DNA from: Escherichia virus TH41
Sequence record: MT446412.1
Reading direction: 5' to 3' (one strand)
Length of the DNA: 64,000 nucleotides
Part shown: piece after piece, positions 7,884 to 59,288 of the stretch
Layout of the letters: each line of letters opens with the position of its first letter
Position numbering within the stretch: position 1 is the first letter of the stretch
Program-made: the position numbers and the translations under genes
The notes under the pieces: generated by a model
The model's input: only the letters and a program-made list of their open reading frames with translations
Told to the model about the DNA's origin: nothing
Databases searched by the model: none

Positions 7884-9863
7884 TTATTGTGGTCCAATCA
7901 GCTCATCGAAATTAGCACCGGTGCTTGTTGCTACGAAATTAAGCGTGATGTAGTTGATGCTGCGCGCAGGTTTGAAATAAATGCTAGCAACAAACTCATT
8001 TCGGTCTATGACCGACGGGGTGTTGTTAGTAGTATCACAAACCACACGACCTTCATAAATGCCACCGAGCGCACGAATACCATCCAAGTATTGAGAAGTT
8101 TCCATACGGAATGATGCACGAGTGAAGTTATCGTTAAGCTCAAACAGTTTATATTTGGATGCGTCACCGATATTTTTCTTCAGCATATTCGTAAGACGGC
8201 GAACGTTGATATGGTCCATCGGAGATGGAACTTTAGTTGCAGTCTTATCACCATACAGAACAAAACCATCACCACCTGCGAAACCAACAACCGGGTTGAT
8301 AGCTTCCTGATACATGCGGTCACGTTGGGTCTGACGTGGTTCAACAGCCAATTTCAGAACGTTCAGAATCTGGCCACGGTTATAACCTGCCGGAGACATC
8401 CAAGGCTGAGAAACATCATCAGTACGAGCACACAGTCCAGCCATGTCAGCTGCCAGAGGAACCCAACGGTTAACGTCGTTATATTTATCATACTGATATT
8501 TATAGTTGCCATCAATCGCTGCATAAGTCGTGCTGATATTCATATTATCAGTATCAAATGCACCAGCACCTGTACGCCAGTCAATCAGGTTATCCACTGC
8601 ACGGGTCAGAGGAACGTTAACCAACAGACCTTTCGGCGGGGAAATGAATGCCAAGCAATCCTGACGTTCGTCAGCAATAGAAACCACGTGCTTCTGAACA
8701 GTGGAAGCGGTCGCATCACCTTCACCAGCACAAGCACCAGCGATAAGCAGGTTGATATGCAGAGCTTCACGGTCAGCGAACAGGTCCCAACCTTGCATCA
8801 AATCACCAGCGGTAATCTTATCGTTTGCAGAAATACCACCAGACAGATTGATGATACCACTGAAGCCTACAGGCCAGTTGCGAGATGTTGCATAGATGTA
8901 GTTGGAAGTACCTTTTGCAAAGTAGTCATCCAGGTAAATGTTATTACCATAAACATCTTTTTCGCCCTGCTTAGTAGACAAAACAACGTTTTCGACGATT
9001 GCACCATCGCGGCGAACGATAATTGCATATTGGTTTTCGGTCTGAGGACCATAGTTAAACACTGCACGAGCTATAGAAGCGCGGGAACCACCACCGGGGA
9101 AAATATCCAGATTTGCAGTTGCGCCTTTTTCAAATTCAGCTTTGGATACGATTTCAACTTCAAGAGTCGAACCAATTTCACCAGGATAAAGAGCAACAAC
9201 ACCCGGCATTGCATATTTTGCCAATGATGCCTGGAATTCCAGAGAAGTAATTGCTTCTTCACTGTTTTCTGCTTCAGTCAACAGAATGCCAGAATCGGTA
9301 ACAATTTTCCCGACAGTGATGGTACCAGATACACCGGAAGAAGTGGTCGTAACTTCTGCAGTCCATGCACTGCCCAAATTAGGATACTGATTAATAGTTT
9401 TAGCAAATGCAATAATCTTATTGGTAGGAATAAAGATTGCCAGAATTTTACCATCAACATCGACCTTGGTCACACGGCCAGCCGGTTCAACAACAGTCTG
9501 GTTGTGTTTAACTTGAATAACATCACCGACAGCATAGTTTGTACCAGCAGTTACGATGGTAGTTTCAATATTGCCAGCAATAGGGGATGCGTTTTTAGCT
9601 TCGTCACGGTTAACAACACGTACAGTACGGAGGTCGTTACCATATTGCAGGAAGTTCATCCCACTCATAAAGTAATCTGCTGTTTCATTATTCGGACCAC
9701 CAAACAAATCAACAAGTTCAACTTCGTTTGTAATCTGAGTTACCTGGAAAGCTGGGCCCCACTGGAATTTACCAACCAGCGCCGCACGACCCGTCGCGTT
9801 ACGAACAACAGTGCTTTGGACCGTTGTTTCTTTGAGCTCAATGCCCGGAGATAATAAAGCCAT
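7884..9863 (-). CDS. 18: Contractile tail sheath protein gp18
   Basis: 659-aa ORF, same length as T4 gp18 as recalled; N-terminus MALLSPGIELKETTVQS; synteny. Confidence 0.9.
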   Translation of the reverse strand: MALLSPGIELKETTVQSTVVRNATGRAALVGKFQWGPAFQVTQITNEVELVDLFGGPNNETADYFMSGMNFLQYGNDLRTVRVVNRDEAKNASPIAGNIETTIVTAGTNYAVGDVIQVKHNQTVVEPAGRVTKVDVDGKILAIFIPTNKIIAFAKTINQYPNLGSAWTAEVTTTSSGVSGTITVGKIVTDSGILLTEAENSEEAITSLEFQASLAKYAMPGVVALYPGEIGSTLEVEIVSKAEFEKGATANLDIFPGGGSRASIARAVFNYGPQTENQYAIIVRRDGAIVENVVLSTKQGEKDVYGNNIYLDDYFAKGTSNYIYATSRNWPVGFSGIINLSGGISANDKITAGDLMQGWDLFADREALHINLLIAGACAGEGDATASTVQKHVVSIADERQDCLAFISPPKGLLVNVPLTRAVDNLIDWRTGAGAFDTDNMNISTTYAAIDGNYKYQYDKYNDVNRWVPLAADMAGLCARTDDVSQPWMSPAGYNRGQILNVLKLAVEPRQTQRDRMYQEAINPVVGFAGGDGFVLYGDKTATKVPSPMDHINVRRLTNMLKKNIGDASKYKLFELNDNFTRASFRMETSQYLDGIRALGGIYEGRVVCDTTNNTPSVIDRNEFVASIYFKPARSINYITLNFVATSTGANFDELIGPQ

Positions 9864-37236: not shown

Positions 37237-37312
37237 GGCCCTGTAGCTCAATTGGTTAGAGCATCCGGCTCATAACTGGCAGGTTTCCGGTTCAAGTCCG
37301 GATGGGGCCACC
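37237..37312 (+). tRNA. tRNA with CAT anticodon (Met or Ile2-type)
   Basis: Hand-folded cloverleaf: 7-bp acceptor stem (two G-U pairs), D-arm GCTC/GAGC, anticodon loop CTCATAA, T-loop TTCAAGT, discriminator A. Confidence 0.75.
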
Positions 37313-37389
37313 CGGGGTGTAGCTCAATTGTATAGAGCAACGGTCTTCTAAACCGTAGGTTGTGGGTTAGAATCCCACCACCCCGACCA
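37313..37389 (+). tRNA. tRNA-Arg (anticodon TCT)
   Basis: Hand-folded cloverleaf: perfect 7-bp acceptor stem, anticodon stem ACGGT/ACCGT with loop CTTCTAA, T-arm GTGGG-TTAGAAT-CCCAC, encoded CCA. Confidence 0.85.
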
Positions 37390-56179: not shown

Positions 56180-56362
56180 ATGTTAACTACTGAACAGATT
56201 GAACAAATCCTTAAACTCGCATGGCATATTGAAAATGCTGCTAATGACCTGGCTGTTGAATATTGTGAAGGTTATTCATATTCTGGAATAGAGCAGTGCA
56301 AGCGTGATTTGGCTAACTCTAAAGCAGCATTGGTTGGGTATCTGAATGAGTTGAAAGAATAA
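56180..56362 (+). CDS. Hypothetical protein (60 aa)
   Basis: Short ORF tightly packed between neighbours. Confidence 0.4.
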   Translation: MLTTEQIEQILKLAWHIENAANDLAVEYCEGYSYSGIEQCKRDLANSKAALVGYLNELKE

Positions 56363-56619
56363 TGGCTGTTGGATTTGCAAAAGATGGTGCTGAACAGTTA
56401 GAGATGGAAGCGGTTGTCCAGGCCGCTATCACCCATGCGAGAGCACAAGTTGCAGTTGAAAGGGAGTCTGCTGAATTCTGTTTTGACTGCGACGAAAAAA
56501 TTCCTGAAGCGCGGAGACAAGCGATTAAAGGCGTGATATATTGTGTTGGTTGTCAATCAATGCATGATGAAATTTTTAAACGTGAGCCAAGAAACTGTTG
56601 GCATAGGAGCATGAGATGA
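56362..56619 (+). CDS. TraR/DksA-type C4 zinc-finger protein (85 aa)
   Basis: CFDC-x17-CVGC with IPEARRQA between the Cys pairs. Confidence 0.55.
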   Translation: MAVGFAKDGAEQLEMEAVVQAAITHARAQVAVERESAEFCFDCDEKIPEARRQAIKGVIYCVGCQSMHDEIFKREPRNCWHRSMR

Positions 56620-56936: not shown

Positions 56937-57497
56937 ATGATTATTGAAACAACTGAATTGTTTGGCGAACTGACCGCTGAAGTAGTTAATAACGCAATTG
57001 AGCTTTGTCAAGAAGACGATAAAATCGTACTAACTATCCAAGATATCAAACCACTTTACGATTTAAAGGTTTTGGACAGACACGATTATCTTAATGGTCG
57101 TGCTAGTGCTTCTGTTGATATCAATGATGATATGTATGCCTATATCTATAAAAATGAAAACGGGTTTAATCTGGAAAATGGTATTGAATGTCTGAGCATC
57201 AGCGATTCTGATAAATTCTTTGATTGTATTTTCAAACTCTTCCAGGAAGAATGCAAGCCGGAAGTTGAATGGAAAGTCCCGGGCCAGGATGCGGTGATTC
57301 GTTCTAGTGAAACCTTTGAGGGTGACGAAGAAGAACTGAATTATGATACCGAATTAACCGTGTATCAACATCAGGGTCGTGATTTGCTATCCTTGACCCA
57401 GACCCACGACGGTTTTAATGAAGTGGTATTTACTAAAGACGAGCTAAAAGTTTTAGTCTCTTATCTGAACTCTGTTATCCCAACTATGAACTCTTAA
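56937..57497 (+). CDS. Hypothetical acidic protein (186 aa)
   Basis: ORF with AGGAA SD. Confidence 0.5.
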   Translation: MIIETTELFGELTAEVVNNAIELCQEDDKIVLTIQDIKPLYDLKVLDRHDYLNGRASASVDINDDMYAYIYKNENGFNLENGIECLSISDSDKFFDCIFKLFQEECKPEVEWKVPGQDAVIRSSETFEGDEEELNYDTELTVYQHQGRDLLSLTQTHDGFNEVVFTKDELKVLVSYLNSVIPTMNS

Positions 57498-57507
57498 GGA
57501 AAATATT

Positions 57508-57960
57508 ATGATTATCAATGCAAACTCTTGGCACGCTCGCTTCCATGACCGTTTTTATGACCGTCATTCTCGTCCACACTCATTGTGTGCTTACTTTTGG
57601 AAAATGGTTTGGGCTTGTTTTGTTTGTGCCATTTTTATCGGTAGTATGGTTTTTGGATTAACTGTCGCTGGGGCTGGTGTATTAGAGCATTTCTTTGTAT
57701 TAAGTACCCCGGTTGGTTTAGGTTTAGGGTTTATTTTAGGACTAGCTACACTGGCTCTTATTCTGGCGGTAGCATTTGGTTTAATGTATGGTCTAATGAA
57801 TTTATGGTCCTGGTATGATTTACGTAAAGAAGAAAAGGAATGGCAACGTATTCTAGCCAAACGTGAAGGAAAGGAAACTAAAGAAAACATCGTTATTCAA
57901 TACATTAAAGCTCGTAAATCTAAGATGTGTCCTGTAATCCACTTCGAGGACAAAAAATGA
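57508..57960 (+). CDS. Membrane protein (150 aa)
   Basis: Three hydrophobic segments, basic C-terminal tail. Confidence 0.5.
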   Translation: MIINANSWHARFHDRFYDRHSRPHSLCAYFWKMVWACFVCAIFIGSMVFGLTVAGAGVLEHFFVLSTPVGLGLGFILGLATLALILAVAFGLMYGLMNLWSWYDLRKEEKEWQRILAKREGKETKENIVIQYIKARKSKMCPVIHFEDKK

Positions 57961-58967
57961 GAACAGTTATGAAAGGCTACTTCGGTAGCCACCTTTATGG
58001 AACAAGTACTCCTGAATCTGATGTTGATTTTAAAGAAATCTTTGTTCCTCATCCGCGAGATATCCTGCTCGGAACCGCGATGAACCATACCAACCTGAAC
58101 ACGAATAATACGGCTACCAAAAATACAAAAGATGATGTTGACCATGAACTTTATAGTCTGAAATATTTCTTTAAACTGGCGGCCGAAGGCGAAACCGTTG
58201 CTCTGGACATGATTCACACGCCGGCTGACCTGGTTGTCAAATCCGATTTACCAGATGTATGGAAGTTTATCCAGGATAACCGTTCACGGTTCTATACAAC
58301 TAACATGAAAGCCTATTTGGGGTATGTCCGTAAGCAAGCTTCCAAATATGGTGTTAAAGGTTCACGATTGGCCGCTCTACGTGGTGCACTGACAATCATT
58401 AACCAGATTCCTGAACAGTGGGTCGACTATCAAGAAGATGGTTCGACTAAGCAACGTCGAACTAAGGTAGAAGATATCAAACACCGGCTTCCAGAGAATG
58501 AATTCTGCGAATGGGTATTTCATAACCACGAGAAAACAGGTCCTCAAACGTTCTATACTGTTCTTGGACGTAAGTACCAAACAACGTTATCAATTACAGA
58601 GCTCAAGCAATCTCTGAATAAACTCGATGCCGAATATGGTGAACGTGCTCGTAAGGCAGAAGCCAATGAAGGTATTGACTGGAAAGCTCTGAGCCATGCT
58701 TATCGTGCTGGATACCAGTTGAAGGAAATCTATCAAACTGGTGACCTGGTTTATCCGCTCAAAAACGCTTCTATTATTAAAGCAATCAAAGCTGGCGATA
58801 TGCCTTTCAAAGTAGTCCAAGGCCTGTTGGAAAATACTGTCGATGAAGTCGAAGTCCTGGCTATCCAGGCCCATAAGAACGGTATGCCTGAGAAGGTAGA
58901 CATGAAGTTCTGGGACAAGTTCGTTGAAGAGGTATACCTTGACAACCACAATTCCTATTATCGTTAA
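57957..58967 (+). CDS. Pol-beta-type nucleotidyltransferase-like protein (336 aa)
   Basis: Start placed at ATG overlapping upstream stop; N-terminal YFGSHLYGTSTPESDVDF matches the GS-x(n)-SD-h-D-h nucleotidyltransferase motif. Confidence 0.55.
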   Translation: MRTVMKGYFGSHLYGTSTPESDVDFKEIFVPHPRDILLGTAMNHTNLNTNNTATKNTKDDVDHELYSLKYFFKLAAEGETVALDMIHTPADLVVKSDLPDVWKFIQDNRSRFYTTNMKAYLGYVRKQASKYGVKGSRLAALRGALTIINQIPEQWVDYQEDGSTKQRRTKVEDIKHRLPENEFCEWVFHNHEKTGPQTFYTVLGRKYQTTLSITELKQSLNKLDAEYGERARKAEANEGIDWKALSHAYRAGYQLKEIYQTGDLVYPLKNASIIKAIKAGDMPFKVVQGLLENTVDEVEVLAIQAHKNGMPEKVDMKFWDKFVEEVYLDNHNSYYR

Positions 58968-58974
58968 ATTCTAA

Positions 58975-58997
58975 GGAACCCTTCGGGGTCCTTTTTT
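58975..58997 (+). terminator. Rho-independent terminator
   Basis: ggaaccc-ttcg-gggtcc hairpin followed by TTTTTT. Confidence 0.6.
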
Positions 58998-59010: not shown

Positions 59011-59040
59011 GTGTACAACCAGATGGTCATGAGGCATAAT
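59011..59040 (+). promoter_or_regulatory. Early promoter cassette (GTGTAC / CATAAT)
   Basis: GTGTAC, 18-bp spacer, CATAAT, conserved leader gattccatactgagttaaca. Confidence 0.4.
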
Positions 59041-59081
59041 GATTCCATACTGAGTTAACAAATAAACAAACGGAGAATAAA

Positions 59082-59288
59082 ATGTTAGAATTAATCAAAG
59101 CTGCTGGTGAAAAAGGTCTGATGGTTAACACTCGTGACCCAGAACAACGTCAAGCATTTGGTGAGTTAAAAGCCAAAGGTCTGGTTAAAGCATCCCTTGG
59201 TATTGGTAATGCTTTGCGTGTGACTTTGACCCCTGCAGGTAAAGCAATGTTCTTCCCTAAACCATTACCAAAACGTCGTCGCAAGTGA
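59082..59288 (+). CDS. Hypothetical basic protein (68 aa)
   Basis: GGAG SD; C-terminal KRRRK. Confidence 0.45.
   Translation: MLELIKAAGEKGLMVNTRDPEQRQAFGELKAKGLVKASLGIGNALRVTLTPAGKAMFFPKPLPKRRRK

Follow-up and report, generated by a model that had tools for sequence, protein, structure and literature searches.

What does the gene at 57957-58967 of the Escherichia virus TH41 window (the whole stretch of 64,000 nucleotides analysed here, record MT446412.1) encode, and on which molecule would its product act? The original prediction, made from the letters of the sequence, was that of a Pol-beta-superfamily nucleotidyltransferase (NTase) carrying a short N-terminal signature, with a membrane protein gene upstream and a strong terminator downstream. 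The gene and its borders are as follows.

57957-58967 (stop codon included), + strand: nrdC.11-type coding sequence for an RlaP-family nucleotidyltransferase of 336 aa (ORF, PF10127, PHROG 388)
57946-57960, + strand: ribosome-binding site GAGGA, ATG start and ATGA overlap, read from the sequence
57508-57960, + strand: gene for a hydrophobic 150-aa protein, in synteny with nrdC.11 in T4-like phages (homologs in 821 phage records)
58973-59003, + strand: terminator-like hairpin AAGGA-a-CCC / UUCG / GGG-UCCUU, then TTTTATTTT (sequence and fold)

The coordinates first given to the gene are right: the reading frame runs on the + strand from the ATG at 57957 to the TAA at 58965-58967, and homologs share that methionine. 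A GAGGA Shine-Dalgarno sequence (57946-57950) is located six bases 5' of the ATG, which overlaps the TGA stop of the upstream gene as ATGA (57957-57960), so that translation of the NTase gene may be coupled to that of its neighbour. A longer version produced by the ORF tool, starting at a GTG at 57927, was ruled out by homolog lengths and by the position of the ribosome-binding site; this start is unsupported because nearly all homologs are 332-336 aa long and begin with the same methionine (first residues MRTVMK). Downstream of the stop codon, the hairpin at 58973-58993 forms 8 bp around a UUCG loop, with a single bulged base in the stem; TTTTATTTT comes next. It is terminator-like by anatomy only. 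That much of the proposed strong terminator stands, but "strong" is an overstatement, because a consensus pattern scan for terminators did not report the hairpin (the bulge is probably the reason) and its folding energy (-10.4 kcal/mol) is unremarkable when compared with shuffled sequences (z = -1.2).

The TH41 gene is, on the strength of sequence comparison and of its assignment to the PHROG 388 group, an ortholog of T4 nrdC.11. A profile search matched PHROG 388 'nucleotidyltransferase' over residues 1-335 (E=1.3e-129), and a translated search retrieved the protein from 1522 phage records, with 81% amino acid identity over the full length to T2, RB14 and T4-type NrdC.11. The 3-kb region around the gene has 94% nucleotide identity to Escherichia phage vB_EcoM_VR20 (Straboviridae, Tevenvirinae, Gaprivervirus); hundreds of further T4-like phages match it less closely. 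In RefSeq, the VR20 ortholog is annotated as 'nucleotidyltransferase, similar to bacteriophage T4 NrdC.11', and the early-gene block of this phage is ordered tk, rI, mobD.x homologs, membrane protein, nrdC.11, nrdC.9, nrdC.8, nrdC.6 ... nrdC. Synteny extends to genes of VR20 and VR7 annotated as similar to T4 MobD.1, NrdC.11, NrdC.9 and NrdC.8, and T4 nrdC.11 occupies the same place in a tk - mobD.x - nrdC.11 - nrdC.9 - nrdC.8 ... nrdC block. The two arrangements differ in their immediate flanks: T4 has the mobD homing endonuclease gene 5' of nrdC.11, whereas this Gaprivervirus lineage has the gene of the 150-aa membrane protein, and the slot of T4 nrdC.10 is taken by a 68-aa ORF downstream (T4 gene order from PMC3468402). 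The gene had been assigned to a nucleotidyltransferase COG (COG3541) in 2006 (PMC1524935), and the exact protein sequence is already deposited in NCBI. Gene, fold class, family and functional prediction are thus already known from the T4 name, the Pfam family, the RefSeq annotation and the literature. Many database entries for this protein carry the label 'thioredoxin', which is wrong.

The membrane protein placed upstream by the original prediction is borne out by the strong hydrophobicity of the product of 57508-57960 and by its VR20 ortholog, annotated 'membrane protein'. Its homologs, found in 821 T4-like records, lie directly 5' of nrdC.11 in RB69, PhiZZ6, IME08 and others. This protein diverges much faster than the NTase, with ~30% identity where the latter retains ~68%. 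A role as functional partner, on the model of a Hailong-like NTase with its membrane effector, was considered and rejected because the pair is seen only in T4-like genomes that share this synteny and has no counterpart in bacteria, where no membrane-protein neighbour was found to recur among 80 loci of NrdC.11-type genes. The upstream protein is probably a syntenic neighbour and not a functional partner.

Family assignment comes from sequence profiles and from residue conservation, the latter read from an alignment of the TH41 protein with 140 relatives (141 sequences, 34-93% identity). Three conserved regions are referred to below.

57978-58031, + strand: Pol-beta NTase signature, residues 8-25, G10-S11 ... 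S21-D22-V-D24 (conservation in 141 relatives)
58134-58208, + strand: candidate third carboxylate D60/D62 (strand 61-67) and D84-M-x-H-x-P (at least 90% conserved; hhalign)
58677-58757, + strand: C-terminal helical motif D241-W-K243-A-x-S-H247-A-x-R250 ... P267 (conservation in 141 relatives)

The Pfam family PF10127 (RlaP, 'RNA repair pathway DNA polymerase beta family') was matched at 45.3 bits (E=1.1e-11; gathering cut-off 23), though only by residues 8-134, equivalent to model positions 25-142 of 249; 140 of 141 relatives match the same family. An exhaustive HMMER search against 1.84 billion cluster representatives returned 3134 relatives at E<=1e-3, with 815 at E<=1e-30; the matches of the best 150 of the 3134 nearly all span the full protein. 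Residues G10, S21, D22, D24, Y131, H247, R250 and P267 are invariant in the 141-sequence alignment, and S11, D60, D62, D84, K130, D241, W242, K243, K278 and G280 are at least 90% conserved. Read from this alignment, the conserved set corresponds to the Pol-beta signature (G-S, D-x-D and a third carboxylate) together with a second patch in the C-terminal half; the metal-binding residue of the D60/D62/D84 region can be proposed as a candidate. Residues 8-25 are YFGSHLYGTSTPESDVDF, identical to the original reading, and the G-S and S-D-x-D signature is no chance resemblance, given the PF10127 and PHROG 388 matches and the invariance of G10, S21, D22 and D24 down to 34% identity.

The predicted structure agrees with this assignment. 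AlphaFold2, run on the 141-sequence alignment, gave a model with a mean pLDDT of 94.5 and a pTM of 0.83, made of an alpha/beta NTase domain (1-~112), two helices (118-149), a beta-rich insert (~154-208) and a helical bundle (213-335). Structure prediction had been named as a check on the original claim, and the model indeed shows an NTase fold; together with sequence profiles and motif conservation, it backs the call of a Pol-beta-superfamily nucleotidyltransferase. The ~280 residues behind the signature, initially described as unassigned, belong to the conserved sequence of the family and have a confidently predicted fold; PHROG 388 covers the full length. Within them, one block is distinctive.

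58416-58580, + strand: beta-rich insert, residues ~154-208 (~55), five strands and one short helix (AlphaFold2 model)

Its pLDDT is mostly 95-97 and its sequence conservation is low. By sequence, neither the TH41 protein alone nor the 141-sequence profile retrieved anything from the PDB but unrelated proteins (best E 0.34-1.5).

The relation to the canonical RlaP proteins reaches significance in the NTase domain only. The RlaP family (PF10127), whose characterised members PfRlaP and PaRlaP come from Pseudomonas rtcB-rlaP-rtcA operons, shares with the TH41 protein the GS, DxD, D and [ED]-h-L-x-[SA]-P motifs and, going by the predicted model, the placing of a helical domain behind the NTase domain. 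Twelve short RlaP proteins of ~255-275 aa, which match PF10127 end to end (E=3e-51 for the example of locus L031), served as the comparison set. By BLAST, identity to canonical RlaP is 25% over 118 residues, within the NTase domain only, and hhalign aligned 82 columns at a probability of 95% (E=3e-8). The canonical GS...DSDYD corresponds to GS...SDxD in TH41, LD...D to DVD, and E-W-L-x-S-P to D-M-x-H-x-P; D60/D62 and D84 match the invariant canonical D73 and E95-W-L-x-S-P within one column. Significant alignment is restricted to the N-terminal ~120 residues. For the C-terminal half, the hhalign result is not significant (E=0.04, probability 1%), and the best path at that non-significant score places K243-x3-H247-A-x-R250...P267 on canonical K148-x3-Y152-A-x-R155...P170. 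Models of canonical-type viral RlaP-like proteins nevertheless align along the whole length of the AlphaFold2 model, with target-normalised TM-scores of 0.46-0.60. The TH41 protein is ~85 residues longer than the ~250-aa canonical RlaP, in which the beta insert is absent by length. The NrdC.11-type proteins can accordingly be read as a long, divergent RlaP subfamily with an added beta insert, in agreement with a published sequence-similarity network that assigns T4 NrdC.11 to the RlaP family and puts its type in cluster 5, separate from the characterised RlaPs of cluster 1a (PMC12776372). Canonical short RlaP was detected in 86 phage records, mostly of jumbo phages; since none of these is T4-like, T4-like phages carry only the long type.

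Bacterial and archaeal relatives of the long type provide a genomic context. In a scan that took one genome for each prokaryotic species, 156 loci with full-length NrdC.11-type proteins were detected, of which 80 were retrieved, with 34-51% identity, from Desulfobacterales, Nitrospirota, Alphaproteobacteria, some archaea and other groups; neighbouring ORFs were clustered and cluster representatives identified with Pfam. Within 6 kb of the gene, these 80 loci contain RtcB (9), the Pnkp kinase-phosphatase-ligase (7), Hen1 (4), Ro60/TROVE (4) and RtcA (2). A canonical RlaP paralog lies within the same distance in 15 loci, usually directly downstream and on the same strand. In the Nitrosospira locus (L031), Ro60, RtcB, RtcA, the NrdC.11-type gene, RlaP and Hen1 form one run, and Pnkp is encoded further downstream; the long and short types lie there in tandem at 8001-8972 and 8976-9743. 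Of the 49 loci whose flanks each extend for 3 kb or more, 19 have an RNA-repair neighbour (RtcB, Pnkp/Hen1, RtcA, Ro60 or short RlaP), and 12 encode a ligase (RtcB or Pnkp) no more than 6 kb away. When all 361 ORFs of at least 120 aa lying within 3 kb were scanned without bias against Pfam, the list was headed by RlaP (13), DEAD helicase domains (8), PNKP_ligase (6) and RtcB (4), each remaining family occurring in at most five ORFs. The association with RNA ligases, a defining property of RlaP, is therefore found in the NrdC.11 clade too and not only in the short enzymes. What is new here is that bacterial and archaeal orthologs of the long clade sit beside RNA-repair genes. The tandem occurrence of long and short types in bacteria implies that the two are not redundant, and their retention in tandem hints at a distinct specificity of the long type.

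The surroundings of the phage gene are of another kind. No RNA-repair gene was found near nrdC.11 in the phage, its neighbours being small early proteins, a DksA/TraR zinc-finger protein and a y05I-like protein. VR20 encodes rnlB, pseT and rnlA (Rnl2, Pnkp and Rnl1) elsewhere, tens of kilobases from nrdC.11.

As for the substrate, the description "unknown" holds for the phage protein but not for its family, since two bacterial members act on RNA 3'-OH ends (PMC12776372). The name RlaP and the predicted restoration of nucleotides on RNA ends before ligation go back to Burroughs and Aravind, as relayed in PMC7824862 and PMC12776372. Carruthers, Fatma and Huang (bioRxiv, Dec 2025, PMC12776372) characterised two Pseudomonas RlaPs whose genes lie between rtcB and rtcA, and described the crystal structure of PfRlaP. 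PfRlaP and PaRlaP add one or two NMPs to an RNA 3'-OH, with a preference for Mn2+, and do not act on DNA or protein; in vitro, the 3' end of the 5' half is preferred in a nicked-tRNA mimic, and RlaP partly restores aminoacylation of a tRNA short of one anticodon-loop nucleotide (PMC12776372). An incompatibility of this chemistry with RtcB was raised by the same study (PMC12776372). Addition to a 3'-OH would suit the 5'-phosphate ligases of T4 better than RtcB.

On this basis, the best reading of the TH41 protein is that it probably serves as an RNA 3'-end "filler", working between Pnkp healing and Rnl1/Rnl2 sealing at anticodon-loop tRNA breaks. The arguments for it are family membership, a conserved active site, the predicted fold and the association of the clade with RNA-repair operons; from them we infer the activity of the clade, its RNA substrate, co-operation with Pnkp and Rnl1 and a role in counter-defence. 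In such a pathway, a host anticodon nuclease would cut a tRNA and might also trim a nucleotide. Phage Pnkp would then clear the 2',3'-cyclic or 3' phosphate and phosphorylate the 5' end, leaving a 3'-OH and a 5'-P. NrdC.11 would put one or two NMPs from NTPs onto the 3'-OH, independently of a template and typically on a tRNA 5' half, with D22, D24 and D62 (or D60) as putative catalytic residues holding two metal ions. Rnl1 or Rnl2 would finally join the 3'-OH and 5'-P ends, which are the very ends that these ligases require. Refilling after base-excising anticodon nucleases of the RloC type would thereby prevent ligation from yielding a shortened, dead tRNA.

Several observations weigh against this filler role. 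The characterised enzymes belong to another cluster and are only ~25% identical, over the first ~120 residues; the PF10127 match is partial (25-142 of 249), C-terminal homology is non-significant, and the ~55-residue beta insert would set the protein apart. The phage gene stands apart from RNA-repair genes, and ~60% of the 49 well-flanked bacterial loci have no RNA-repair neighbour. T4 is viable after loss of the block nrdC.11-mobD.3, so nrdC.11 is dispensable under laboratory conditions (PMC9825161). Finally, untemplated addition could not by itself supply the correct modified wobble base.

A more specific version is tentative: the NrdC.11 type may form a functionally distinct long RlaP subfamily, defined by the beta insert and the DWKAxSHAxR helix, with a specificity of its own, for example recognition of a gapped anticodon loop and addition of a particular nucleotide. 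It would be paired with short RlaP in bacterial RtcB or Pnkp/Hen1 operons and act alone in T4-like phages, where it could be the missing third T4 tRNA-repair enzyme and the answer to RloC.

Among the alternatives, the one that survives best, although unlikely, is RNA 3'-end extension outside anticodon-loop repair, either to rebuild the tRNA 3'-CCA or to tail host or phage transcripts and so alter their stability. It would fit the behaviour of the characterised RlaPs in total E. coli RNA, where they label many species, including rRNA-sized RNA and full-length tRNA, with little NTP specificity (PMC12776372). The separation of the phage gene from ligase genes, the many bacterial orthologs (most of them) that stand alone and the tRNA genes that the phage itself carries point the same way. 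However, the conserved neighbours, where present, are healing and sealing enzymes (RtcB, Pnkp/Hen1, RtcA) and not CCA-adding or RNA-decay genes, and the preference of RlaP in the nicked-tRNA mimic is for the 3' end of the 5' half (PMC12776372); both speak against this alternative.

Nucleotidylation of a protein or small molecule is improbable; it would serve to disarm a toxin or metabolite of the host, much as MntA-type antitoxins AMPylate HEPN toxins or as aminoglycoside/lincosamide NTases act. The nearest solved structures (Foldseek against the PDB) are all nucleotidyltransferases, with weak scores, 7-13% identity and no match below E=1e-3, a likeness at the level of the fold. Kanamycin nucleotidyltransferase/ANT(4') and the NTase-like 3c18, at only 7-11% identity, lack a family-level sequence match to the TH41 protein, which differs from them in the conserved residues of its helical domain and whose gene has no antibiotic-resistance context. 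Membership in the MNT/MntA group is contradicted by scores under the cut-offs (NCBIfam MntA, 13.4 bits against 60; NTP_transf_2, 14.2 against 21), this sub-threshold MntA match being all that NCBIfam offers and no usable assignment. The HEPN superfamily is marked by an Rx4-6H motif, whereas the conserved helix of the NrdC.11 type carries H-x2-R. No HEPN toxin gene was found beside the NTase gene in the TH41 window or at the bacterial loci, and no toxin gene or defence-system partner of any kind was found to recur beside bacterial orthologs. In addition, bacterial RlaPs left E. coli proteins unlabelled (PMC12776372).

Still less probable is the synthesis of a free oligonucleotide or signalling nucleotide, as by Hailong HalB or the CD-NTases, with the product serving as a decoy or interfering with immune signalling. 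HalB is an oligodeoxyadenylate-synthesising NTase that pairs with a membrane effector in host defence, whereas the TH41 clade has no conserved partner of this sort; the likeness is one of fold (11-13% identity, TM-score 0.23-0.36, Foldseek E >0.02). The PADLOC defence-protein models (CD-NTase, HalB and others) gave no match at E up to 1, and the sequence family is that of RlaP, not of HalB or the CD-NTases. An inactive protein that merely retains the NTase fold, as a scaffold or for binding, would agree with the want of a reported activity for the clade and with the deletion of the gene from T4 (PMC9825161), but is hardly credible because phage, bacterial and archaeal relatives as low as 34% identity keep every catalytic residue invariant or nearly so.

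As a finding about the window, this analysis brings little that is new, since databases and the literature already contain the gene together with its fold class and family. Useful by-products are the tie of the clade to bacterial RNA-repair operons and the recognition of the mislabelled entries, and residual novelty lies in the unexplained beta insert and in the tandem long and short types of bacteria. The textbook example of a phage reversing RNA damage inflicted by its host is the repair, by T4 Pnkp and Rnl1, of tRNA cleaved by PrrC. RloC excises the wobble nucleotide, a lesion proposed to defeat this T4 repair (PMC2610378). If NrdC.11 refills the gap, the repair pathway would gain a third step, and an arms race that has been open since 2008 would become directly testable.

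In GenBank and UniRef, many of the entries that represent orthologs of the protein encoded at 57957-58967 (nrdC.11) carry the name "thioredoxin". Because nrdC is the T4 thioredoxin, this label probably arose from the gene name nrdC.11 and spread from there; neither the sequence nor the structure model of the NrdC.11-type protein supports a thioredoxin identity. Single ortholog entries bear different names that are likewise unrelated to the protein, among them "putative HNH homing endonuclease" and "ArsR family regulator". In the structure model, five strands are confidently predicted between the helices proximal to the nucleotidyltransferase domain and the C-terminal bundle (residues about 154-208), where sequence conservation is low. 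Canonical RlaP is too short to accommodate this beta-rich insert.

58416-58580, + strand: beta-rich insert of the NrdC.11 protein (predicted structure)

The early-gene block of nrdC.11 includes, just upstream, genes for a zinc-finger protein and a y05I-like protein, and the gene directly upstream encodes a hydrophobic protein, its stop codon overlapping the nrdC.11 start as ATGA.

56362-56619: DksA/TraR-type C4 zinc-finger protein, 85 aa (PF01258, E=6e-9)
56937-57497: y05I-like putative transcription factor, 186 aa (PF24449 plus PF24448)
57508-57960: hydrophobic protein, 150 aa

For the hydrophobic protein, 821 records of T4-like phages contain homologs, which retain their place beside nrdC.11 across genera at only about 30% identity, the match to T-even phages such as RB51 being limited to the first 67 residues. 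Downstream, the interval that separates the terminator-like hairpin from the next ORF (59082) contains several matches to sigma-70-like promoters (59012-59091), each agreeing at 9-10 of 12 positions. This suggests that one transcription unit finishes with nrdC.11 and a new unit begins after it; the number of promoter matches in the scanned region lies within shuffle expectation. Elsewhere in the window, two adjacent tRNA genes correspond to a pair annotated in the closest phage, VR20.

37237-37389, + strand: tRNA-Met (CAT) and tRNA-Arg (TCT)

In a translated search of phage records, OL964745.1 (Escherichia phage T4, 159,752 bp) matched only the C-terminal 39 residues of NrdC.11, and most of the gene therefore appears, from sequence, to have been deleted. 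Such a deletion fits the loss of nrdC.11-mobD.3 reported in genome-reduced T4 (PMC9825161).

Among the bacterial loci encoding NrdC.11-type proteins, three on metagenome-assembled "bacterial" contigs (L006, L010 and L023) have surroundings that resemble those in a phage or prophage more than a repair operon of a cell: the gene adjoins one for a protein of 507-516 aa that carries a uracil-DNA-glycosylase-superfamily domain, and a ResIII/SNF2-type helicase is also encoded beside it. In 15 bacterial loci, the long NrdC.11-type gene is accompanied by a paralog of the short, canonical RlaP type, whose complete copies encode about 255-275 aa and which mostly lies directly downstream, overlapping or abutting it. 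This pairing is found, for example, in L031 (3555-16626), L051, L056, L047, L082, L075, L014 and L012, the first of which shows a run of Ro60, RtcB, RtcA, long RlaP, short RlaP and Hen1, with Pnkp downstream. Neither RlaP type, long or short, looks redundant with the other, and the two may work as a pair.
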